Source: Pseudomonadota bacterium (lineage in GTDB: Bacteria > Pseudomonadota > Gammaproteobacteria > Xanthomonadales > SZUA-38). Taken from it: 64,000 bases of DNA. The first letter of the stretch is position 1; each line of letters opens with the position of its first letter. The notes under the pieces were generated by a model. The model was not told where the DNA came from and did not search any database. It saw only the letters and a list, made by a program, of their open reading frames with translations. Location: positions 1,629-65,628 of the forward strand of contig JBCCVP010000009.1 in NCBI GenBank assembly GCA_039195135.1, in the 5' to 3' direction. The position numbers were made by a program, and so were the translations under genes. Positions 1 to 18,961 of this stretch are shown piece by piece.

Positions 1-195
1 TACGGCACCAGCTACGTGACCGGCAAGTACCTGCTGGAACAGACGCTGGCGGACTTTGCCCGGCAGGCCGAGCAGGGACCGGAAGCTTTCAGCATGAAGC
101 GCTTTTTTGACACGCTCAATCGCATCGACAGTATCCCCATTGCGCTCGGGCGCTGGGAGTTAACCGGCGAAGACGACTGGATCGAGCAACCGTAG
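1..195 (+). CDS. 3' end of a gene entering from upstream; possibly a DUF885-like protein
   Basis: Frame 1 is open from base 1 to TAG at 193-195. The tail ...[22 protein letters not shown] resembles DUF885-type C-termini. This is a weak assignment from memory. Confidence 0.3.
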
Positions 196-207
196 CGAGG
201 CGGCGGG

Positions 208-1020
208 TCAGCTCACGCGCGTGCCGCGAATACCCAGCAGTACCGCGTCAACCAGATCGAGCGGAATCACCAGCCGGTTGTGACGGATGAGGCGCCGCCG
301 AATCCTTCGTTTTGAGGCTTTATGGGCCCGCGGCTCCAGCGCTTTGAATGCCTCAGCCAGGGCCGCAGCCCGCGGCAGCAGGTCGTCCACCGACGTCAGC
401 TCGTCAAAGAAACCGGCCTGCCGGGCCGTTTCCGGATCGAACGTCTCGGCGAGGGTGACGGCGCGCTGGTACGCCGCGGGATTAAGCCGGTGCTTGAGCA
501 TCGCTGCGGCTACCCGGGGCATGGTCATCCCCAGCGCCACCTCGTTGGCGGAGATTTTGAAATCTCCCTCCGCGCCGAGCACGTAATCTGCCGCCAGGGC
601 AAGAAACACACCCATGGCCATCAGGTGACCATTGCAGGCGGCAATGACCGGATAGGGGTGGGCGAGTACCCGCGCCGTCAGCGAGTAGCCGCTGGCCAGC
701 ATGCGCAGCGCCGACGTACCGCCGCGCTTCATGACCTTGAGATCAAATCCCGCCGAGAACACCTCCTCGCGGCCCGTGACGACCACAACAGCGCGATCTT
801 TCTCGGCCTGGGCAAAGGCGTTATGAATCGCTTTCAGCACCGCCGGGGACAGGGCGTTGCGCTTGCCGTCGTCGATGACAATGCGGGCGATCTGGCTCTC
901 CAGCTGGTAGGTAACCGGGTTGTTCAACGGCGTGCTCTCAAAGCCTGGACGGGCCGGGATTGTCTGGCCAAAGCCTGCGGTGTTGCAACCGGAGCATGAG
1001 TTCCGACCGTTTTCTGGCAC
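208..1020 (-). CDS. enoyl-CoA hydratase/isomerase (crotonase) family protein
   Basis: 270 aa ORF with crotonase hallmarks (IARIVIDDGKRNALS, VVVVTGREEVFSAGFDL). The true start is probably TTG at 927, preceded by GAGAG, rather than 1020. Confidence 0.85.
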   Translation of the reverse strand: MPENGRNSCSGCNTAGFGQTIPARPGFESTPLNNPVTYQLESQIARIVIDDGKRNALSPAVLKAIHNAFAQAEKDRAVVVVTGREEVFSAGFDLKVMKRGGTSALRMLASGYSLTARVLAHPYPVIAACNGHLMAMGVFLALAADYVLGAEGDFKISANEVALGMTMPRVAAAMLKHRLNPAAYQRAVTLAETFDPETARQAGFFDELTSVDDLLPRAAALAEAFKALEPRAHKASKRRIRRRLIRHNRLVIPLDLVDAVLLGIRGTRVS

Positions 1021-1070
1021 GCCGGAATTTTCGGAAATACGCCGGAATTTACGCCGGCTGCGCCGGAATT
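1019..1070. promoter_or_regulatory. three phased direct repeats (ACGCCGGAATTT twice, GCGCCGGAATTA once); candidate enhancer/UAS
   Basis: GCCGGAATT occurs at 1021-1029, 1041-1049 and 1062-1070, spaced 20-21 bp apart. The repeats lie 110-160 bp upstream of the sigma54 promoter at 1179. Confidence 0.4.
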
Positions 1071-1178
1071 ATCAGCTGTTCCGTTTCTTTGAGGTCCCGA
1101 ATTTCCATCTCGGCATCTGATTTAAATCACTGGTTTTATTGGCTTATCTGGCTCGGTTGCCACGCCCCCGGGCATTCC

Positions 1179-1193
1179 TGGCACAGGCCTTGC
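1179..1193 (+). promoter_or_regulatory. sigma54 (-24/-12) promoter
   Basis: cTGGCACaggccTTGCg matches TGGCAC-N5-TTGC exactly. Confidence 0.55.
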
Positions 1194-1446
1194 GGCGTCC
1201 TGGACGTGCAGGCCGCCCTCGACGCGGACGGCTATGTTGCGGGCGATGCCCTGTCGCCCAGGATGGGCCGGTCGGATGAGGGTGAAGTCATCACCATCCA
1301 GGATACGGCGCTGCTGTGGGGCGACGACGTCTGGGGTAACGGTTATCTCTGGGCCAACAACGTGGTCAACGCCAACGCGCTTTACAAGCACACGCGCAGG
1401 GTCTGGAGCTTCACGACGATTGAGGAGCAACACTCCCCCGGGAGGG

Positions 1447-1482
1447 ACGCCGCGGGCTGGGGCGGCTCGCGGCGTTTTTTTT
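1447..1482 (+). terminator. rho-independent terminator
   Basis: 8 bp GC-rich stem ACGCCGCG/CGCGGCGT with a 13 nt loop, running into a T8 tract (1475-1482). Confidence 0.6.
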
Positions 1483-1596
1483 GGCGGGGCACCAAATTTC
1501 CGGCGCAAAACACGCATTTTTGCACACCCACTCCCTCAAGCTGCCTGCTTAATCCGCCGTTATTACGGCCTGTAATCTTTTTTTGGGACCAGCCCG

Positions 1597-2751
1597 GTGG
1601 CCGAAATACTACTTGTCGGTGCGCGTGACGACGCGCTGACCAATCTGCAGCGCTACGTGGCCGCGCAGGAGCCTGACTGGTCCGTGGTGCACAGCCTCGA
1701 CAATCAGGGGGCGCTGGAGCGGCTGCGCAAGCGCTCCAGCGACATCGTGCTCGCCGGCATGGAAACGGAGCAGTGCGAGCTGCTTTTCTCCGAGGTGGGG
1801 GAGACGGCGCCGGGGGCGATCCGCCTGGCCCTGTCAGCGGCACCGGCTCATCTGATTCGCGGCGCCCATCAGATTCTGGCGCGGCAGAGTGAGCTGGACG
1901 ATCTGCATCAGCGGCTGCGGGCCGCCGTGCGCGTGTCCTCCCGCTCCGCCGGCCGCCGACGCCTGCAGCGGATCATCTCCCGGTTTCAGGAGGTGCCGTC
2001 ACCGCCGCAGCTCTACTTTGATATCCGGGAACAGCTCGACAGCGCCGCCGGCACGTCCACCAGCATGGCGGAGATTGCCAGCAAAGACCCGGCGCTGGTG
2101 GCGCGTACGCTGCAGATCGCCAACTCCGGCTTCTACGCCCGTTCAGGAACGGTGGGGGATCTGGTGGACGCGATCACGCTGCTGGGCACGGAAACCCTGC
2201 TGGGACTGGTGCTGGCGGCGCACCTGTTTTCGGGCATGCCGCCCCCGGGCCTCAAGCTGGACATGCTCTGGCGCCATTCCTTTTCCGTCTCTCAGCTGGC
2301 CCGGGAAATCTGCCGCGGCGAAGGCGGCAAGGCGGGTGAGGCCAGCCACAGTTTTCTGGCCGGCCTGCTGCACGACATCGGCCTGATTGTGCTGTTTCAG
2401 AACGAGCCGGCCGACTACCTGCCCATGTGGCAGGCCGCTCAGGGTGATGAGGATACGCTGGTTGACCTTGAGCGGGAAGCGTTTGAGATTTCTCACGCGG
2501 AGCTCGGTTCCATGGTGCTGACGCTGTGGAATCTGCCGGAGCGGGTGGTGTCTGCGGTTGCCGCAAGCCATGCCGGCGACCTTGCGCCGACCGATTGCCG
2601 CGTGTCTCGCGCGGTGCTGGCTGCGGAGTGGCTGCTGGGGCGCGACTGCCCGGCCACGCTGGATACGCTGCCCGCGCCGCTTGCCGACACCAGCGCCGCC
2701 ACGCTTGCGAGCTGGGTGGACGCCCGTTCCCGTTTGGAAAGCGGCAGCTGA
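1597..2751 (+). CDS. HDOD domain protein with an N-terminal receiver-like (pseudo-receiver) domain
   Basis: GTG start. The HDOD signature is present (PSPPQLYFDIREQL...IASKDPALVARTLQIANSGFYA...LLGTETL). The N-terminus is CheY-like, but the acceptor position reads DIVLAGME. Confidence 0.85.
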   Translation: MAEILLVGARDDALTNLQRYVAAQEPDWSVVHSLDNQGALERLRKRSSDIVLAGMETEQCELLFSEVGETAPGAIRLALSAAPAHLIRGAHQILARQSELDDLHQRLRAAVRVSSRSAGRRRLQRIISRFQEVPSPPQLYFDIREQLDSAAGTSTSMAEIASKDPALVARTLQIANSGFYARSGTVGDLVDAITLLGTETLLGLVLAAHLFSGMPPPGLKLDMLWRHSFSVSQLAREICRGEGGKAGEASHSFLAGLLHDIGLIVLFQNEPADYLPMWQAAQGDEDTLVDLEREAFEISHAELGSMVLTLWNLPERVVSAVAASHAGDLAPTDCRVSRAVLAAEWLLGRDCPATLDTLPAPLADTSAATLASWVDARSRLESGS

Positions 2752-2761
2752 GGTGGACGTT

Positions 2762-5725
2762 ATGAATCAGTCGGAACTGCTACGGGAATGTGTTGAAGAG
2801 TTCAAACGGCTGGCCGGTGCCCGCCATGCCAGTGTCGCGATCCACCTTTCACCCCTGGAGCGGCGATCACTTTTCGTCGCGGAAGCGGGCGCCGGCCCTG
2901 CCGTGGCTGAGCTGCAGGACGAGGCCACGGCCTGGGCGTTTATCAGCGCGCGGGACGTGGACGATGGTGATGCCCCGGTCGTCAGCGTGGTTCCGGGGAA
3001 AGAGGCCGGAACGACGCTGGTGCGCGTTGCGTTCCACGAGCTCCTGCCCCAGCCATCCTCGGAGCGGCGGGATGGACGGGAACGGCGACTTGATCCGGTG
3101 GTGCGAACGGCGCTGCCGCGAGATGGTGCGTTGTGGATCGGGCTGCGGGACGCCAGCGATGTGTCGGCGCTGGTGGGGGATCTCAACCCGGAAACCGCCT
3201 TCACCGATTCCGACCCCGTCCTCCACCGTTTGACCAACCTGTGCTGCCGGCTTGCGTTCAGCGTGTACTACCTGTCGACGCTGACGCTTGATCCGGTAAG
3301 CCAGCTGGCTGGCCGCACCCACCTGCAGGACTTTCTGCGCCGCGCGGTCAGCGCGCTTAAGCAAAGCGAACAACCGATCGCCCTGCTGCTCGTCACGGCG
3401 GACGATTTCGCCATGATCAACTGCCGCCACGGGCGGCAATTCGGTGACCAGGCGATCAGGGAGATCGCCGAGCGTTTGGAGTCCACGCTGCGCAGCACGG
3501 ACGGATTGTTCCGCTACAACGGCGCGGCGTTTGCGGTCGTGCTGCCCGCTACCAACCCCAGCCAGGCCCGGGCCACGGCAGACAAGCTGAGAACGCGGCT
3601 GGTGGGGCAGGGATACCTGGAGGAACAGCTGCCACTGACCTTCAGCATGGGCGTAGCTGTGGCAACGCCGGAAGAACTTCAGCATTGCGAAGACGCTGAG
3701 ACCGCCCTGTTCCGGCATGCCGATACGGCGCTGAACAGCGCCCGGCTTTCCGGCGGTGCTCAGTGCTGCGTGCTGTCGTTGTCGGACGAAGATGCCCCGG
3801 CCCACGGCAATCCGCTGAACGGCGTGTTTACCGCCGACACGGAAAAAGACCACCGCAACATGCTGCTGCTGTGGGATACCGTCACGCTGGTTTCCAGCGT
3901 GCCCGAGCCGGCCCAGATGGCGAGCCGGTTTGTCGAGCGGATCGCCAGCGTATTTCGCCCGGAGCGGGTGGCGCTGCTGCGCCCCGCTGAAGAGGGCCTG
4001 CAGACGGTGGCCAGCAGCCTGCGGGATGACGCCCGTCCCGACGGCCGGATCACGGGGCGCCCGATCAAGCTGAAGTCGAGTCACGCTGACCTGGTTACCC
4101 AGGCGATCGACACGCGGCAGGTGGCCCGGTCACGCACGGAGCAGGGCGCCGCGGCGTCGCGGGTGGCCTACGCCGTGCCGCTGGTTTCCGGCGCCGCCAG
4201 TCAGGGCTGCCTGTTCCTGGAAGTGCGGCGGGACACGATCAAGGTGGACTCAGCGGACGTGGTGTTTCTCAATGCGCTCGCCTCGCAAATGGCGGTCGCC
4301 ATGGAGCGGGCGGAGCTGGCGTCCCGGCAGTTTGAGGAAAAGGACCGGGAAAGCCGGTCCCTGCGAAGAGAGGTGCGGGGTCTTAGGCAGGCGCTGAAGC
4401 ACAGCCGCATGGTGTATCAATCCCAGGCGATGCACGAGGTGATGCAGCTGCTGACCAAGGTAGCGCCCACCGACGCGACAGTGCTCATCATCGGGGAAAG
4501 CGGCACCGGCAAAGAGGTGCTGGCCCGCAGCGTGCACGAGCTTAGTGACCGCCGAGAAGCGCCGTTTGTGGTGTTTGACTGTGGTGCGGTGGCCCCCACG
4601 CTGCTGGAGGCAGAGTTGTTCGGCCACATCAAAGGCGCCTTTACCGGCGCTGACAAAGCGTCCGAAGGGCATATCGCCCGGGCCGCCGGGGGCACCCTTT
4701 TTCTGGATGAAATTGGTGAATTGCCGCTCGGTATTCAGGCCAAGCTGTTGCGCTTTGTGCAGGAAAAAGAATTTGCCCCGGTGGGCAGCGCGAGCACCCG
4801 GCAGGTGGACGTGCGGGTGGTGGCGGCGACCAACCGCCGACTTGAGGACGAAGTGGCCGGCGGCCGCTTTCGCGCGGACCTTTACTACCGCCTGCGGGTG
4901 ATTGCGGTGGACGCGCCACCGTTGCGTCAGCGGCCGGAAGACATTCTGCCGCTGGCCCACTACTTCGTGGAAAAGTACGCGGTGCAGCACGGCCGGCCGG
5001 TCAGCGACCTGACGCCGGCGGCGCAGCAGAAGCTGCAACAGTATGCGTGGCCTGGCAACGTTCGGGAGCTCGAAAACAGCATCCTGCGGGCGGTACTCAC
5101 CCACGGCGACGGTCCGCTGGACGCCGCGGCGATCGAGCTGGAAACGGAAGGCCGCGCGCCGGTCGGCGCACCGGTCGCGGCGGTCTCGCCCCTGGCCCTG
5201 CCGCCCACCGCCATGCACGGCGGTCACGTCGCTGCTGACGCGGCGGTGATGCCGCCGCCGGTGGACCCCTGGGGGTCGCTGCAGGCGGAGCTTGAGCGAC
5301 AGGTGGAGCTTGCGGTGGCGGACGACGGCCGCCGTCCGGTGCCCCTGGGGCGCTGGCTGAATGAAGATCTGATCCTGCAGGCCAGCGAGGCCTGCGACAA
5401 CGTGGCGCGCCGCGCTGCGAGCCTGATCCAGGTGCCGGAGTCGACGTTCCGCCGACACTTGGACAAGGTGCACACCGGCGTCGCCAATGGCGGCCTGTTT
5501 CGCACGGATCACTGGAGCCCGGTCCGGCCGCTGCTGCGGCGGCTGATTGAGCAGGCGGACGCGGAGAGCGACAGCGGGCACAGCCTGCTGGAACGTTCCC
5601 GCTCCACGCTGCTGCGCTGTGTCCGGTCCCGGCTCGACGGACGCGCGTCCACTGCCGCGTCCCTGATGGGGGTAACGCCGCTGACCTACAAACGTTGGCT
5701 CAGCGAGCAGGAGGAAAGATCATGA
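2762..5725 (+). CDS. sigma54-dependent enhancer-binding protein: N-terminal region, degenerate GGDEF, GAF-like, AAA+, Fis-type HTH
   Basis: ATG at 2762 (MNQSELL), 10 nt after the HDOD stop. The AAA+ domain has GESGTGKE, GAFTGA and LFLDEIGE. The C-terminal HTH is ASLMGVTPLTYKRWL. The GGDEF-like block reads RSTDGLFRYNGAAF. Confidence 0.9.
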   Translation: MNQSELLRECVEEFKRLAGARHASVAIHLSPLERRSLFVAEAGAGPAVAELQDEATAWAFISARDVDDGDAPVVSVVPGKEAGTTLVRVAFHELLPQPSSERRDGRERRLDPVVRTALPRDGALWIGLRDASDVSALVGDLNPETAFTDSDPVLHRLTNLCCRLAFSVYYLSTLTLDPVSQLAGRTHLQDFLRRAVSALKQSEQPIALLLVTADDFAMINCRHGRQFGDQAIREIAERLESTLRSTDGLFRYNGAAFAVVLPATNPSQARATADKLRTRLVGQGYLEEQLPLTFSMGVAVATPEELQHCEDAETALFRHADTALNSARLSGGAQCCVLSLSDEDAPAHGNPLNGVFTADTEKDHRNMLLLWDTVTLVSSVPEPAQMASRFVERIASVFRPERVALLRPAEEGLQTVASSLRDDARPDGRITGRPIKLKSSHADLVTQAIDTRQVARSRTEQGAAASRVAYAVPLVSGAASQGCLFLEVRRDTIKVDSADVVFLNALASQMAVAMERAELASRQFEEKDRESRSLRREVRGLRQALKHSRMVYQSQAMHEVMQLLTKVAPTDATVLIIGESGTGKEVLARSVHELSDRREAPFVVFDCGAVAPTLLEAELFGHIKGAFTGADKASEGHIARAAGGTLFLDEIGELPLGIQAKLLRFVQEKEFAPVGSASTRQVDVRVVAATNRRLEDEVAGGRFRADLYYRLRVIAVDAPPLRQRPEDILPLAHYFVEKYAVQHGRPVSDLTPAAQQKLQQYAWPGNVRELENSILRAVLTHGDGPLDAAAIELETEGRAPVGAPVAAVSPLALPPTAMHGGHVAADAAVMPPPVDPWGSLQAELERQVELAVADDGRRPVPLGRWLNEDLILQASEACDNVARRAASLIQVPESTFRRHLDKVHTGVANGGLFRTDHWSPVRPLLRRLIEQADAESDSGHSLLERSRSTLLRCVRSRLDGRASTAASLMGVTPLTYKRWLSEQEERS

Positions 5726-8700
5726 AGGCCTCAGGTCTGCTTCGAAAGCTCTGCGCCGCAGCGGCCGTTCTGGCGCTGCTGTGCGCTACGCCAGCGTTCG
5801 CCGCGCAGCCGGTGGACACGCTGAAGCGGAACCTCAAGTTCGTCAATCTGACGACGGAGGATGGCCTGTCCAGCGAGTTTGTCACCGCCGTCGCGCAGGA
5901 TGGTCAGGGCTACCTGTGGTTTGCTACCCAGTCCGGTCTCAATCGCTACGACGGTCATGAGATCCGCGTGTACGAACATCGACCGGATCAGCCCAACTCC
6001 ATCAGCGACAATTTTCTCCGGGCGCTGGTGGTCGACCACCAGGGGGAGCTCTGGGTGGGCACCGGGCGCGGGCTCAATCGCTACGACGCCAGCCGCGACT
6101 CTTTTGTGCAGCGGCCGTTTGATGGCCAGCTGGCGGATCTGCGAATCCGGGCGGTGACCCAGGATGACAACGGCCGTTTCTGGGTGGGCACGGTGGCGTC
6201 GGGGCTGTTCGCTATCGACCGTGATGGCAGCAATCTGCGGCACTATAGCCACGAGCCGGGCCGGCCCGACTCGCTGCCGTCGGATCAGGTGATCACCATG
6301 CTGGAAAGCCAGACCGGGGAGGTCTGGGTCGGCACCGACGGAGGGGGCCTCGCGCGCCTCGATCGCGAGCAGCAGTCCTTTACCGTGTACCGCCACCAGC
6401 CGGATGATCCAGCCAGCCTCGCCGGCGACGAAATCCGTTCGATGTTTGAAGATCGCGATGGTTTTATCTGGGTCGGCAGCGCGCAGGGCGGCCTAAGCCG
6501 CTACAACCCGGCAACGGATCGGTTTGACCGTTTTGCCCACAACGACGAGGACCCTCTGAGTCTGGGTACCGGCCAGGTTCCAGCCATCTTCGAAGATCGC
6601 GATGGCACCCTGTGGGTGGGTACGGAAGCGGGCCTTTCTGAGTGGCGGCCTGCCCGGTCCGGCTTTGTAACCTACCGGCGCGATCGAGGCGGTCGCTACA
6701 GCCTGGTGAATGATCGCGTCAACGCGATCAGTCAGGATGCTTCCGGCGTCCTTTGGGTAGCCACCCACGGGGGCGTCAGTGCGTGGAACTACGTGAGCGA
6801 CACGTTCTTTCAATACAACGCGGAGGGCGGCTTTGTCGCCTCCGACATCGTGACCTCCGTGGCTCAGTCCCAAGATGGCCACGTGTGGGTGGCCACCTAC
6901 GGCGGTGGACTGTCACGCATCAACATGAGCGACGGCGCGGTGCGCCAGTTCCGCCATCGGCCGGGTGATGCCACCAGCCTGGCCGATGACCGGGTGATGG
7001 CGGTGTACGTCGACCAGGCGGATCAGGTGTGGGCGGGCACGCGGGACGGTGGCTTGTGCCGACTTGTGGGTGAGGACAGCTTTTCCTGCTATCAGTATGA
7101 CCCGGCCGACAGCACGTCGCTGAGCGGCAATGCGGTCACCCGGGTTTACAGCGACAGCAACGGCGACCTCTGGGTGGGCGTGTTTGGCGGGGGCCTAAAT
7201 CAGCTTCGCTGGGAAGGCGACCAGGCCCAGTTTCGCCGGTTCCGCCACGACCCGGAAAACCCGGCAACGCTGAGCTCCGACCGGGTGCTCGCCATGGCCC
7301 ACGGCCCGGATGGCTACCTGTGGGTCGGCACCGAAAGCGGCGGCCTCAACCGGCTGGATCTCGAGACCGGGCGGGTGCTGCGTTTCGATATTGAACCCTA
7401 CGCCACCAACAGCGGCGTAGATCCGGTCAGCGGCAGCCCCTGGGAACTGTATTTTTCCGAGGACGGTGCGCTCTGGATCGGCACCATGAGCCAGGGCCTG
7501 CTGCGCTGGTCCGAGCGCGATCGCGCCGCCAACCGGGCCGAGTTTGAGCGCTTTGGCCTGAACGACGGACTGACGTCCGGCATCTACGGCATCGTACCGG
7601 GCGACGACGGCAAGCTGTGGCTGAGCAGTAGCCAGGGCCTGTTTGGTTTTGACCCAAAGCGCCGGACCGTGAGGAAATTTGATCGGAGCAACGGCCTGCG
7701 CAACAACGAATTCAACGTGGGGGCGCGACTGAAAACCCAGTCCGGTGAGCTGATTTTTGGGGGCACCGCAGGATTGGTGGCGTTTTCGCCCCAGGCCCTG
7801 CCGTTCAACGCGACGCCGCCGCCGATCGCCCTGTCCGCCCGCTCCCGCCGCGCGGTGCTGGCCCGCAATGGCGATGGCGGGACGCCGCAGGTCTCGATCA
7901 CCTATCACGACCCGTTTGTCGCCTTTGATTTTGTGGCGCTGGATTTTGTATCGCCGGACAAGAACGCCTACCGCTACCGGCTGGAGGGCTACGACAGCGA
8001 CTGGAATGATGCAACGCAAATGCGCACGGCGGTTTACTCCAACCTGCCCGCCGGCAGCTACACCTTCCGGGTGAACGCCTCCAACAGCAACGGCGTGTGG
8101 AATCAGGAGGGTGAAGCGATTGTGCTGACGGTCTCACCGGCTCCCTGGGCAACAAGCTGGGCCTTCTTCGGCTACGCGTTCGCCGCCGCAGCGTTGCTGC
8201 TGTGGGCGGTGCGCCGGCAGAAGCAGAAGCGGATGGCGGAGATTGAGCAGCGCGTGAAGCTCGAGCTCCTGGTGGCCGAGCGCACCAGCGAACTTGAAAC
8301 CCGCAATACTGAGCTGGAAGCGCTGAACCGGAAGATCGAGGACGCCAGCCTGACAGACCAGCTGACGGGCCTGCGCAATCGCCGCTTTATTCACCAGTTT
8401 ATTGACTCCGACCTGTCGACGATTGAGCGCAATCACTACCGGAGTCAGCAGGATCCGGAGGCTCGCATACCCGACCAGCTGCTGTTTGTGATCATGATCG
8501 ACCTGGATCGCTTCAAGCCGGTGAACGATCGTCTTGGGCATGACGCCGGGGACCTGGTGCTGCAGATGGTCTCAGACCGCCTCACGACCTGCTGCCGCGC
8601 CTCGGATACGCCGGTGCGCTGGGGCGGCGATGAGTTTCTCCTGGTGGGCTACACGGAGACCTTTGAAGGTATCGAGACGCTGGCGGAAAAGGTCCGCGTC

Positions 8701-10403: not shown

Positions 10404-10684
10404 AACGGCGACGCCGTGAAGCAGAACGGGGCAGGTATTCCATGTGCTGGAGATCAGGAAGTTGCGTCATTGACCCGGGAGCTCAACATAGGAATGCAAG
10501 GCGGCATCCCAGGGCAGGGAAATGGACACAGTCGCCGTGCATGCGACGTGTCACAGACGCGCTTCAACGGGTTGGAGCAGTTCAATAGCTGCAGCCCAGA
10601 CCAGATGGGCCGGCGGGTGGCCCGGGCCAGCTGCCTGGTGGACGACGGGCGGTTCCTCTTCTCCGACGGTTTCGAATCCGACGG

Positions 10685-11194
10685 CTAAAGCCGCAGCTCC
10701 GAAACGAGTTGTTCTGCCCAGGTTGCAATACGTTCGCCGGTCAAATCCGGCTGGTGGAGTTCGTCCAGAGCCAGGCCAACAAACTTTCCGTTGACCACCC
10801 CTTTTGATTCGGTGAAGTTGTAATTCTCCGTGGGCCAGTGGCCGATGTCGGCGCTGGCGCCCCGGGCAAGAAATCGGTCCCGCAGAATTCCCATAGCGTC
10901 CTGAAAGTTATCGGGGTAACCGAATTGATCACCGTCGCCAAAAAACGCCACCTGGGTGCCTGCGAAATTCACGTCATCGAATTGTCCGAGAGCACGCGCC
11001 CAATCTTCCTGAAGTTCACCGATGTCCCAGGTTGGAATGCCGACCAGCAGCACATCGAACCCGGTCAATTCGTCCAAAGCCAGACGCTCGACGCTGAGCA
11101 CATCCTGCACGTGCGTTTCGAGTTCGTCGAAAATGGCCTCGGCGGCCTCTTCGGTATTGCCCGTGGTACTTCCAAAAACAATCCCGATCCTCAA
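10685..11194 (-). CDS. fldA: long-chain flavodoxin
   Basis: MRIGIVFGSTTGNTEEAAE... is the canonical flavodoxin FMN-binding N-terminus. Length is 169 aa. Confidence 0.9.
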   Translation of the reverse strand: MRIGIVFGSTTGNTEEAAEAIFDELETHVQDVLSVERLALDELTGFDVLLVGIPTWDIGELQEDWARALGQFDDVNFAGTQVAFFGDGDQFGYPDNFQDAMGILRDRFLARGASADIGHWPTENYNFTESKGVVNGKFVGLALDELHQPDLTGERIATWAEQLVSELRL

Positions 11195-11228
11195 TTCCTG
11201 TCACTCCGCACGGCTAATAGGTGTAAAC

Positions 11229-11247
11229 GATAATGATTATCATTATA
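11229..11247. promoter_or_regulatory. Fur box
   Basis: GATAATGATTATCATTATA matches GATAATGATAATCATTATC at 17 of 19 positions. It lies 35-53 nt upstream of the flavodoxin start. Confidence 0.8.
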
Positions 11248-11413
11248 CTTAACACCCGGAACTCGCACAACAGGAATCGGGAGCGGGATTAAACCGGGAT
11301 TCTGGTACTAGGTGACCCACAGGCGTAAGTCAGCTACTCAAAAGCGGGAAAGAGATCTGATATCACTCACGTGCTTCCGACCTGGCACTTGGTCCTGGAC
11401 CCTAGGATTGCGG

Positions 11414-12013
11414 ATGAGCGAAAGCGAACGACAATGGCTGGTCGCGGTACTGGTGTCCCTGCTGGTGGCGATTCGCATCGTGTCCCACCTGGTGGCGGGC
11501 GGTATGTTTCGCGACCAATCCGACGGGGTGGCCCGGGAGGGAGGCGTCTGGCTGGCGGCCGGCCTGCGACTGGTTTTTCTTCTCGGCGGTCTCGGGGGAC
11601 TTTTGCTATGGCTGGTGGAGCCCAGCTGGATGCCCTGGCAGCTGGACCTGCCGCCCGTGGCCCATTTGGCTGGTCTGGTGCTGGCAGAACTGGGCCTTGT
11701 ACTGCTTGTCTGGGTGCAGATTTCGCTGGGCGTGCATTTCTCCGGCACGCTGCACCTGCGCGATGATCATCAACTGGTGCGGCACGGACCCTATGCTCGG
11801 GTTCGGCATCCCATGTACAGCGCCTTCCTGCTGATTTTTTTCGGCCTGACGCTGCTGACGGGCAACGCTTTGATCGGCGCAGTCCTCCTCGGTTCTCAAG
11901 TCTGGGTGCTCGGCTGGCGGCTGCCGAAAGAGGAGCAGGCCCTCGCGGAGCGGTTTGGCTCTTCCTGGCAAACGTATCACGCGCAAACCGGGGCCCTAAC
12001 GCCCTGGTTTTAG
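11414..12013 (+). CDS. isoprenylcysteine carboxyl methyltransferase (ICMT)/phospholipid methyltransferase family membrane protein
   Basis: Multi-TM protein with LVRHGPYARVRHPMYSAFLL and a C-terminal EEQALAERFG motif. Start chosen at MSESERQ. Confidence 0.8.
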   Translation: MSESERQWLVAVLVSLLVAIRIVSHLVAGGMFRDQSDGVAREGGVWLAAGLRLVFLLGGLGGLLLWLVEPSWMPWQLDLPPVAHLAGLVLAELGLVLLVWVQISLGVHFSGTLHLRDDHQLVRHGPYARVRHPMYSAFLLIFFGLTLLTGNALIGAVLLGSQVWVLGWRLPKEEQALAERFGSSWQTYHAQTGALTPWF

Positions 12014-12078
12014 CGAGCAACGCTCGCCTTGGCGTCACCGCGAGATGCTAACTCTCCAGCATCAGTTCATTTGAGTTC

Positions 12079-12106
12079 GCGGGGCCATGCCATCGCATGG
12101 CCCCGC
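12079..12106. terminator. bidirectional hairpin between convergent genes
   Basis: Perfect 12 bp arms GCGGGGCCATGC / GCATGGCCCCGC with loop CATC. No strong T tract. Confidence 0.5.
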
Positions 12107-12117
12107 AACCCGGTGCC

Positions 12118-15100
12118 TCACTCGAAGCCATCTTCAAACAGGAGGTCCTCGCCTGCGGCAATCGCCACGCTGGCGGACACCGCTTCACCCTCGTCACCGT
12201 TGAGATTTACCGGCCGGACGACGTAGGTGTACGTCTGCCCGGAAGCTGGCGTTTCGGCGAAGGTGGCTTCCATGGTTGAGGGATAACTATCCCCCAGGTA
12301 GACGGCTGAGGGTTCCCGGTTCGAGTATCGGTACACCGTATATCCCAGGTTGGGCGTTGTGTCGGCGTTCCAGCTCAGCTGCACGTCACCGGCAGAGCCG
12401 AGCATGGCCTGCAGACCGGACAGCTGCGGCGCCTGGCAGCTATCGCCCAGGCCATCGCGATCCCGGTCCGCCTGGTCCGGGTTGGCCACGGTCTGGCAGT
12501 TATCGATGGGGTTGGGAACGCCGTCTCCGTCTACGTCCGCGCAGCCTTCATCAATGTCGCCGTCGTCGTCGTTGTCGACCAGGTCACAGAGTTCCTCCCC
12601 GGGGATCGGATCGGGCAGCTCGCCCTCGATCGCTTCGGTCTGATCAAGGTCCGGATCGATACCTGGATCGCCTTTTCCGCCGTGCGCATGTGGCGCGCCC
12701 CCACCATGGGTATGACCCACGACCTTGTTCTGGTTTTTGGGAAACGGCAGGTCCCGGCTCACCTCGGGACAACGTCCCGTGCCAAACTCGCTGTCAAGCG
12801 GAGTAGGGCACCAGTTACGGTTGGCCAGGAACCACTCCCGACAGTCCAGCGGCTCCACGCCGGTGGCCAAGGTAGGAATGGCGTTTTCGTACGCTTCCGG
12901 CCAGGTGTAGCAGCTCTTCTCCGGTTCCGCACAGTTATTGCGGTAATGCCTCTGGCACTCGACGGCTGTGGGCGTAAACAGGTGATCGTCAAAACTCTCT
13001 AGCACCTTCCGGGACGAATTCTGATTGACGGATTGCGCGACGGTCCCCGAATCAATGACGCCGTTGCAGTTCCAGTCAATGCCCGGCCCGTGCTCGGGTA
13101 CGTCGAAGCTCCAGGTCCAGTTTTCCAGGCGGCGCGCCAGCGTCCGCCGACCGTCGCTGAGGATGTCCACCGGGCCCGTGGAATCGGAACAGCTGTACTT
13201 GAAAACCGGGAACGCATCGGGATGACTGGCGTGAGAACAGCTGAGGGAACGGATTTTTTGGGCGAACGGACTTACGCTGGATTCGTTGAGCCGGTCTTCA
13301 TCCAGACTGCCCAGATCTTCAACGCTGAGGGTGAGTACCGATACCAGCTCCGGCTGATAATCTTCCGGCAGCGGGTCCGGCACCGGTTCCATACAGGTCA
13401 GGCCGGAGTTGTACAGATAGTTCATCACACTGATGTAGTTAGGTTTGTAGTTTTCGCCATTCCAGCGAGCGCCGCCGGGGTTGACGAAGCCGCCCGTCGC
13501 GGTAGGCGGATCTCGAGGCGCTGGGCCGCCGTGCCCCAGTCCCGCTGTGTGACCCACCTCATGAAATAGCACCGAAGAGTGTCTCGCAACCCAGTCCTTG
13601 TCACATGACGGCCCGTCAAAGCCGCCGCCGATCCGGCAAGGGGTGGTGCAACTGGCAAAATCACCGTCGTCGAGAGGGCAGTCCGCGGCGGTGCTGCACG
13701 TCATACCGCGGCGACTTCCACCGTCGCAGCCGGTACGGCACATGGCTCCGGTGCCCGGGCACTCAAAGTCCCCCCGGCAGGATTCAAACTGCCTTGGGCC
13801 GCTGCTGCAAAAACCACCTGTCCCTTCGTAGGCTTCGACGGTGGAGAAGCGGTTTCCGCCGCCACCAGCCCCGGCAGCCGCGCGGTTATAGGCGTAGAGG
13901 AATGCCCACGCGCGTTTCGGATCAAAGTAATACTCACCGTCCTGCATCTGATAGACGGCGGTATTGTCTTTGAGGTGGGACTGGCGGTAGACGGTAGGGC
14001 GTTCGCGGTCGTGCGTTTCAAGATACAGCTTGATGCCGTTGTCTCGCAGCGCGCTTCGCATCATGTCGTAAACCTGCGGACTGGGTGCCGCTAACTCTTC
14101 CGAGTCTACCTGGAGCAGCAGGTCGCGCCGGCAGGGATGCACGCCGTAGTTCACCAGCGGCTCCAGCTCGCCGTTGGCAAAATGAATACCCGTGATCTCC
14201 CAGCCGTCCGACAACCCGTCAAGGTCCGTGTCGGGCGAATTGGGATCGGTACAAAGGCCGGCTTCGATGGCGTCGGCCAGGCCGTCGTTGTCACGGTCCG
14301 GTCCGGAATTGCCGAACAGCACCACATGGTCGTTTGAGGTTGCCGAAGCGTCTTCGTTAACCGTCGCGAAGGCCTTCAAACGAACCAAGGCGACGCGCGG
14401 TTCCGGCTCGATGACCCAGGTGCAGCTGGCTTCAGCGATGAACGTTGAGAAATCGCAGCGCCGGGCCGGGAATATGCCTCCCAGCGCGTCGGAAATGACA
14501 ATGGATTTGACGCCAGAGTCATCGGTGACGTCAGCGGTTACCGTCACCGCCTCGCCCGGAGCCGGGGTCGCGGGGGAATAGCTGAGGTCGATCTCCGGGG
14601 CCTCGCCGTCGACCAGGATTCGAAACTGCCGGCGACGCGAAACGGCCGTTCTGCCCGCCTGATCTTCGACTCTGGCTGACAGCTCATGCAGGCCTGGAGA
14701 AAAGGACCCCGTATACCGGCCCAAATAAGAGACCACGTCGTCTCCGGAAGAAAGGTCCACACTTTCGACCGGCACGCCATCGACGAGTAGCTCGATGAGC
14801 TCGATGTCTACGTCGTCGGAGGCGGAATAGGTGATTTCGACCTCGTTGACGTCGGGCACCGACGCCCGCCAGAGACCTGCGCTGATGGAAGGATTTTCAC
14901 CGTCCATGCGAGGCAGCGCAGCCAGGTCGATCTCAACCTCCTGCCAGCTTGACGGATTGGTGCTGGAGCCGCCCACGGGCCAGTCCAGGCGCCGTTCCTG
15001 ACCGGAGCCATTCAGGTAGCTGTGGAGCACCCGCAGGCGAAATATTCCAGCGGGGTCGGGGAGGATCGATCTTGGAATGCGAAACTCGATGGGAATCTCG

Positions 15101-18849: not shown

Positions 18850-18961
18850 AACGCAACCTTTTGGTTGCAATTAATTTGCCACCGCACTGCCCTAAATGCA
18901 ACTTCTGGGTTGCTTTTTGAAAAAAGACCGGTTTATTTAACATTTGCGTTAATTAACAGAT

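Follow-up and report, generated by a model that had tools for sequence, protein, structure and literature searches.

Which gene does a sigma54 promoter serve when no complete gene follows it? The question is raised by an intergenic region (928-1596) in a 64,000-nucleotide (nt) stretch of DNA from a Pseudomonadota bacterium (Gammaproteobacteria, Xanthomonadales, SZUA-38; GenBank assembly GCA_039195135.1, contig JBCCVP010000009.1, positions 1,629 to 65,628), here called the window. The region is bounded on one side by a divergent enoyl-CoA hydratase gene (208-927, minus strand) and on the other by an HDOD gene that begins at 1597 on the plus strand and is followed by the gene for a sigma54 enhancer-binding protein (EBP). 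A previous reading made from the letters alone (the sequence-only reading) had described a sigma54 promoter with phased repeats upstream and a terminator downstream, and had left three identities for the roughly 280-nt unit so enclosed: a small RNA, a small protein gene or a gene remnant. Our analysis points to the last of these. We consider it likely (probability about 0.85) that what survives here is a fossil, the remains of a gene that encoded a secreted protease of the subtilisin type (Peptidase_S8), depended on sigma54 and once stood directly upstream of an operon of HDOD, EBP and YYY-GGDEF genes.

Homology of the segment downstream of the promoter

A Pfam scan of the open reading frame (ORF) in the window gave no match, so that it holds no S8 catalytic domain with its Asp/His/Ser triad, and a word-indexed protein search with the peptide gave none either. 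The homology was found by an exhaustive HMMER search, in which a 95-residue query was compared with 1.84 billion protein representatives (E ≤ 1e-3). This returned 37 proteins, one of which (P0121) is the ORF call of this very locus; the 36 others were matched in the C-terminal parts of larger proteins. For homology to the subtilase tail, E-values of 4e-14 to 1e-9 were obtained. In most of the matches longer than about 400 aa the peptide aligned in the C-terminal part (residues 399-464 of 473 in P0122, 828-897 of 956 in P0128, 596-650 of 652 in P0129 and 835-881 of 881 in P0139). Independently, tblastn found a match at L004:3113-3274 (59% identity over 54 residues), within a gene for an 800-aa protein directly upstream of the HDOD ortholog of that relative. 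The matched proteins (470-950 aa) and the 800-aa protein of L004 belong to Peptidase_S8 (Pfam E = 3e-53 to 4e-46).

Window positions 1191-1430 (plus strand, 80 codons) share 49-61% identity with the final ~56-80 residues of the Peptidase_S8 homologs (L004:1103-3505, P0122, P0128, P0129). They cover the closing strand of the S8 domain (GVLDV) and a C-terminal tail that reads ALSPRMGRSDEGEVITIQDTALLWGDDVWGNGYLW…LY…TTIEEQ, and as a whole correspond to the terminal ~77-80 residues of the subtilases. After the catalytic domain the homologs share a tail of the form …GAGVLDxxxAL…ALSPxMxRSxxGxxxLVEDTAxLWGxxxWxxGYLW, and the window sequence CGVLDVQAALDADGYVAGDALSPRMGRSDEGEVITIQDTALLWGDDVWGNGYLWANNVVNANALYKHTRRVWSFTTIEEQ retains every conserved position of it. 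In the homologs the tail continues with GYLWxx hexapeptides, numbering from 1 to more than 12, and closes with a short …LY…S.TLNDD end. The alignment with P0122 (its residues 397-473) ends at the last residue of that protein, which corresponds to window 1428-1430. On this homology, 1191-1430 is the 3′ remnant of a Peptidase_S8 subtilase gene, and neither a functional small RNA nor a small-protein gene.

The hexapeptides form tandem arrays of up to a dozen or more units at several subtilase C-termini (L004:3270-3440; P0128, P0146, P0126 and P0131), with variants such as GYLWAD, GYLWSN and GYMWSD. No Pfam family covers these GYLW-type repeats, and a role in sorting or anchoring, or processing into peptides, would be guesswork only.

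The sequence-only reading had also noted a protein-like frame with strong GC bias at third codon positions (GC3) in ORF 960-1628. That frame is real but limited to 1191-1430, where G+C by codon position is 0.64/0.44/0.84 (0.72/0.49/0.81 in intact neighboring genes); no such periodicity was detected in 1071-1190 or 1431-1596. As the periodicity is found only there, the protein-like part comprises 240 nt and not the whole ORF. The outcome for the three proposed identities follows the homology check that the same reading had suggested for this segment. When run, it aligned the segment with the 3′ end of a known gene, the rest of which is missing, a result which that reading had itself named as speaking against its proposal; the remnant stood, and the self-contained functional unit of 280 nt did not.

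Gene callers report ORF 960-1628 (plus strand) as a protein, of 222 aa on a contig from the Logan assemblies and of 210 aa in the protein library (P0121). This called protein is an artefact, in which enhancer, promoter, remnant, terminator and HDOD leader are strung together in one open GC-rich frame. An ORF on the minus strand (1122-1517) was likewise rejected as GC-rich antisense noise, the codon-position signal belonging to the plus-strand frame.

The breakpoint and the probable loss of the stop codon

All eight tblastn alignments with full-length or partial homologs begin at nt 1191. The Pfam S8 domain ends at residue 668 of the L004 protein and at residue 396 of P0122, and the match to the window begins at residues 669 and 397, respectively. 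We built a profile hidden Markov model from 18 homologs that included 90 conserved residues upstream of the breakpoint (…SGTSMAAxxVSG…ATVKARLMRSARK…), and it matched the window only from profile position 91 onward (E = 6e-24). Searched with all filters off, the six frames of 850-1640 gave no match to the 90 upstream residues, and no other subtilase sequence was found in the 64-kb window. Because both the homology and the profile match start so abruptly, the breakpoint can be placed at 1191-1194, directly after the -12 TTGC of the promoter. In the relatives L004, L016, L022 and L023 the -12 region reads TTGCAC(T/C)TA, and in the window it reads TTGC/GGCGTCCTGGAC, where the GGC GTC CTG GAC after the slash encodes G-V-L-D. 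A faint likeness of ARLPRPRA to ARLMRSAR, in another frame upstream of 1191, was dropped, as it had no support from the profile search.

A Logan contig (L001) that was assembled independently matches the window exactly over positions 1-4615, with four single-nucleotide polymorphisms beyond. Its agreement across the junction shows that the arrangement did not arise by misassembly.

At the other end of the remnant, the ancestral stop codon would be expected at 1428-1433 (plus strand), which now reads CAA CAC. At the corresponding place L004 has TAA-CCAGAC-TCCCGG and the window CAA-CAC-TCCCCCGG, a comparison suggesting that one substitution at 1428, TAA to CAA, probably abolished the stop.

Promoter core and upstream repeats

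The promoter elements described by the sequence-only reading are present. The sigma54 (-24/-12) core, TGGCACaggccTTGC at 1179-1193 (plus strand), is an exact TGGCAC-N5-TTGC with GG and GC 10 nt apart, and is the single such instance in the whole window. By itself the match is not significant: since 0.26 exact cores are expected per window by chance, and 23 of 100 shuffles held at least one, it proves little alone, and its weight comes from position and conservation. Transcription is predicted to start near 1204-1205.

Upstream of the core, three direct repeats of the form (A/G)CGCCGGAATT(T/A) make up a putative upstream activating sequence (UAS) at 1019-1071 (plus strand). The copies are ACGCCGGAATTT at 1019-1030, ACGCCGGAATTT again at 1039-1050 and GCGCCGGAATTA at 1060-1071, spaced 20 and 21 bp apart; the 10-mer CGCCGGAATT has three exact occurrences in the window, every one of them within 1019-1071. 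The repeat centers lie 114-155 nt upstream of the -24 GG, the enhancer distance that had been claimed, and their phasing corresponds to whole helical turns. They are the reverse complement of an AAATT(T/C)CGGCG motif found in relatives. The spacer between repeats and promoter (1072-1178) is AT-rich, with 58% A+T in 1072-1150 vs 37% in the window, and a scan of it for the IHF consensus (WATCAANNNNTTR, ≤1 mismatch) gave no match. A fourth copy of the repeat stands inverted at 1494-1507 (minus strand) between the terminator and the HDOD gene, as AAATTTCCGGCGCA, which is TGCGCCGGAAATTT on the minus strand. Repeat-like copies occupy the equivalent place in L004 (ACCGAAATTCCGACGC), L003 and L013, and the inverted copy is a possible EBP operator of the HDOD operon.

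The match could have been fortuitous, or the promoter could have been inactivated by a deletion that replaced positions -11 to +1 and the whole 5′ untranslated region, leaving the repeats to serve only the HDOD operon or the divergent enoyl-CoA hydratase gene. The chance expectation given above would allow for this, as would the loss of the CAC(T/C)TA that the relatives carry downstream of TTGC and the repeat copy upstream of the HDOD gene. Against it, strand and distance from the repeats are as they should be, the core occupies the position that the promoter has in the relatives, and the binding of sigma54 holoenzyme is determined mainly by the -24 GG and -12 GC elements, both of which are kept. 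We therefore regard a dead or chance promoter as highly improbable. We conclude that the promoter is genuine and that the three repeats are an enhancer belonging to the family of the adjacent EBP, and we infer that the EBP binds there.

Scanning metagenomes for CGCCGGAATT-N9-12-CGCCGGAATT gave more than 120 stretches; these held neither HDOD, EBP or subtilase relatives nor a similar intergenic region and were discarded as chance matches. Elsewhere in the window, TGGCAAattaaTTGC at 18867-18881 (minus strand) differs from the sigma54 core at one position, keeps GG/GC and has AT-rich surroundings. An IHF-like AACCAAAAGGTTG (18854-18866) adjoins it, and the core match may be a second sigma54 promoter of the window.

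Conservation of the layout in relatives

Relatives of the locus were collected by scanning the genome collection with an HDOD alignment; a single HDOD protein query had found none. The gene order of HDOD, EBP (GGDEF-GAF-AAA+) and YYY-GGDEF is kept in L002-L004. In L004, whose HDOD protein is 52% identical, the layout upstream is intact: two copies of AAATTTCGGCGC at 859 and 879 (20 bp apart) and a third, related copy at 1004, then TGGCCCcctttTTGCA at 1044, an ATG at 1103, the 800-aa subtilase gene to 3505, a terminator directly after its stop (-40.5 kcal/mol, z = -5.5) and the HDOD gene at 3694, with the EBP and YYY-GGDEF genes after it. Read as its reverse complement, the L004 motif differs from the window repeat by one substitution.

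Sigma54-type promoters precede cluster-linked subtilase homologs in several relatives. With at most one mismatch they were found in L004, L022 (TGGCACggccaGTGCA at 2866, minus strand) and L023 (TGGCACagctcATGCA at 4970), and with two mismatches in L016 (TGGCATggcgcATGCA at 11729). Such matches occur in the background at 4.6e-5 per nt per strand, or ~0.006 per 120-nt upstream region. L022, which is Pseudomaricurvus alcaniphilus, has in addition two CGGCAyTTTTCGCCAA repeats 20 bp apart. A AAATTTCGGCG motif (≤1 mismatch) lies 157-185 nt upstream of sigma54 promoters at seven loci (L004, L012, L017, L018, L021, L022 and L213). The conservation in related genomes that the sequence-only reading had suggested checking was thus found in L004 and at other loci of this EBP family, and by this comparison the promoter, the phased repeats and the terminator are conserved regulatory elements tied to the family.

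A further conserved pair of elements was seen downstream of the EBP gene, where CAATTTCGGCG is followed ~173 nt on by TGGCA(T/C)GGAGGTTGC (L012:10317-10505, L017:10314-10500, L018:10336-10523, L021:5516-5705 and L022:10439-10610). In L022 the pair precedes a GGDEF-EAL gene (10667-12121), and the EBP family probably has a second target there.

Terminator, gene signals and the alternatives to a fossil

A strong intrinsic terminator before the HDOD gene had been proposed and is indeed there, as a hairpin of 22 pairs at 1438-1484 (plus strand) that includes a T8 run at 1475-1482. Its fold of -35.2 kcal/mol (z = -4.6) was equaled in stability by 0 of 200 shuffles; a simple terminator scanner missed the hairpin and folding against shuffles detected it. 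We read it as the native terminator of the lost subtilase gene.

Promoter core and terminator bracket a unit the size of a small RNA, and the intact, perfect -24/-12 core, the three enhancer repeats, the strength of the terminator and the little decay of the remnant would all suit a remnant co-opted as a sigma54- and EBP-dependent small RNA of ~280 nt (~1204-1482) in a circuit linked to cyclic di-GMP (c-di-GMP). We consider such an RNA very unlikely. No Rfam family was found (in a search at E ≤ 10 the best hit, at E = 0.12, was far below the gathering score), and outside the terminator the fold of the transcript body does not exceed that of shuffles in stability (z = -1.89; as good in 9 of 200). 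The protein-coding signature, with GC3 of 0.84, is fully explained by subtilase ancestry. The unit is carried by this genome only and has no counterpart in the sister clade (L002, L005 and L006).

The signals of a gene are absent from the remnant, as had already been suspected of its stop and ribosome-binding site. The first stop of its frame comes only at 1626-1628, past the terminator and into the HDOD gene, and no Shine-Dalgarno sequence precedes either candidate start, GTG 1206 or ATG 1263. The former lies 1-2 nt from the predicted transcription start, the latter encodes the internal Met conserved in ALSPxM, and no signal peptide was found in the remnant. These absences, and a frame that runs on through the hairpin, speak against a small-protein gene for the subtilase tail domain alone, beginning at one of the two starts. 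The open frame and strong codon bias would agree with such a gene, and a real one exists at L213, with the same UAS motif and a sigma54-like promoter. We nevertheless hold a small protein here to be extremely improbable. A conserved small gene might also have been read from P0127 (53 aa, 69% identical); this was rejected, as L209 shows that protein to be a call inside another decayed subtilase.

The gene at L213 (L213:533-1129) encodes P0144, a protein of 102 aa made up of a signal peptide and the subtilase tail domain, with an AGGAG ribosome-binding site. It lies behind ACCGAAATTTCGGCG (533-547) and a sigma54-like TGGTATgatgtTTGCT (718-733; core at 718, two mismatches). Its upstream neighbor ends in YLW repeats, and downstream are two small ORFs and a PilZ-domain gene. 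The L209 locus (L209:40-687) is an independent pseudogenization in the same subtilase family, with the N-terminal propeptide region joined, out of frame, to the part containing …SGNSMAAAMVSG… and with P0127 as the tail; this decayed gene is present in six contigs from different samples.

The proposed deletion and the points that weigh against it

The fossil reading supposes an ancestral layout like the one that is intact in L004, in which AAATTTCGGCG-type repeats ~110-185 nt upstream, the -24/-12 promoter, a subtilase gene of ~2.4 kb, its terminator, a further repeat and the HDOD operon would have followed one another. The EBP, bound at the phased sites, would have contacted the sigma54 holoenzyme at the -24/-12 promoter and so switched on the secreted subtilase, probably in response to a signal sensed by its N-terminus of degenerate GGDEF and GAF domains. 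A single deletion of ~2 kb, beginning immediately behind the -12 TTGC (1193/1194) and extending to the codon for the final strand of the catalytic domain, would have left the enhancer sites and promoter core, the 80 C-terminal codons and the native terminator. The remnant cannot make a protease because it is without a catalytic domain, a signal peptide, a ribosome-binding site and a credible start. If the EBP still binds and the promoter opens, the product would be a non-functional transcript of ~280 nt, from ~1204 to ~1482, and any translation of it would be non-stop. The low decay of the remnant suggests that the deletion was recent.

Several observations weigh against this account. No intact allele of this species was found, and the deletion is reconstructed from L004, whose HDOD protein is as distant as stated above. 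The closest relatives, the sister clade of L002, L005 and L006 (68% identity), have neither a subtilase nor the promoter upstream of HDOD, and the history of the locus was thus not simple. Subtilase homologs at L205 and L207 are without a sigma54 promoter, so that sigma54 control is not universal in the family, and the stand-alone secreted protein of L213, behind the same type of motif and promoter, means that small genes of this domain are possible in principle. That the breakpoint lies exactly behind the -12 element, with a perfect core left over, is either a coincidence or a hint that the promoter was kept by selection. The remnant has hardly decayed: it has no internal stop, keeps its GC3 and shows 59% identity to L004 vs 52% for the intact HDOD protein. 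Such low decay fits a recent deletion and is also compatible with continuing constraint.

The fossil might have been retained for a function, either as a regulatory RNA of ~280 nt driven by EBP and sigma54 and bounded by the terminator, or as an orphan enhancer and promoter acting as a decoy that titrates the c-di-GMP-linked EBP off its remaining targets. We think this very unlikely; if true, it would be a regulatory exaptation of a pseudogene.

The two subtilase genes without a sigma54 promoter encode P0122 (L205), the best homolog of the remnant, and P0129 (L207). In place of the promoter they have TGTGACGCGTTTCACGG-type sites of the form TGTGA-N6-TCAC, which are CRP/Clp-like (L205: 4720-4790 and 4887-5003; L207: 4880-4940). 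The L205 gene is split by an in-frame TAG into ORFs of 35 and 473 aa.

The neighboring operon and the candidate activator

The first gene of the conserved regulatory operon (1597-2751, plus strand) encodes an HDOD-domain protein (Pfam HDOD, 4.7e-43) with orthologs in the relatives. A block CGCCGTTATTACGGCCTG (window 1555-1572), ~25-40 nt upstream of its start, recurs as CGCCGTTATTTCGGT in the 68%-identity sister clade (L002 ~610-627; L005 ~5958-5975). It is conserved, unlike the remaining intergenic region, and may serve the HDOD operon as promoter or operator.

The second gene (2762-5725, plus strand) encodes the EBP, which the sequence-only reading had named as the obvious candidate activator of the promoter at 1179. 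The assignment to the sigma54 activators is borne out by a Sigma54_activat domain (E = 4.9e-67) and by a GAFTGA motif at residue 625 (4634-4651). The protein has an N-terminal degenerate GGDEF domain, a GAF domain, the AAA+ domain with GAFTGA and a C-terminal tail resembling a helix-turn-helix (HTH). The signature of the GGDEF part (3491-3532) is a degenerate NGAAF, with an RxxD I-site, RSTD, exactly five residues upstream. Pfam found no HTH, and two HTH-like stretches were seen at 5438-5470 and 5675-5710. From its domains, the EBP looks like a c-di-GMP- or nucleotide-sensing activator of unusual architecture.

Taken across the relatives, the comparison defines a cis-regulatory module, a AAATTTCGGCG-type enhancer ~115-185 nt upstream of a -24/-12 promoter, which accompanies this unusual GGDEF(degenerate)-GAF-AAA+ activator. 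Its putative targets include secreted subtilases with GYLW-repeat tails, the stand-alone tail-domain protein and the GGDEF-EAL gene. Together they would form a candidate regulon that joins c-di-GMP signaling, sigma54 and extracellular proteolysis in uncultured Gammaproteobacteria. A literature search on sigma-54, subtilisin, EBP and HDOD found no description of such a regulon.

Comparison with known systems

Neither part of the locus is new in kind. Its architecture is that of a textbook sigma54 promoter with UAS, its content is a truncated Peptidase_S8 gene, and the whole is an ordinary pseudogene with well-preserved regulatory DNA. Compared with Peptidase_S8 genes that have the C-terminal tail, the window copy is without propeptide, catalytic domain (D/H/S triad), start and stop, and holds a single GYLW unit. 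Decayed bacterial pseudogenes that keep promoter and terminator are a further close likeness, and L209 offers an example from the same subtilase family, affected by an internal deletion and a frameshift. Both loci have lost a large part of the coding region, both retain residual codon bias, and in both an ORF is still called (P0121 in the window, P0127 in L209). Unlike in L209, the deletion in the window starts close to the promoter and fuses the -12 element directly to the 3′ tail.

In the classical sigma54 architecture, EBPs bind upstream activating sequences, as NtrC does at glnAp2, NifA at nifH and XylR at Pu. The window resembles these systems in the exact GG/GC spacing of -24 and -12, in the type of enhancer (two or three sites ~110-185 bp upstream, phased by two helical turns), in the AT-rich spacer and in the GAFTGA AAA+ activator encoded next door. 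It differs from them in that its spacer is without a consensus IHF site, the N-terminus of its activator consists of a degenerate GGDEF domain with an I-site and a GAF domain, and the driven gene has been deleted. FleQ and VpsR are sigma54-type activators that respond to c-di-GMP and have no GGDEF domain. The window likewise has an AAA+ regulator of the sigma54 family among genes of c-di-GMP signaling, with HDOD, GGDEF, EAL and PilZ neighbors, but unlike FleQ and VpsR its EBP carries a degenerate GGDEF domain with an RxxD site, which is a candidate sensor.

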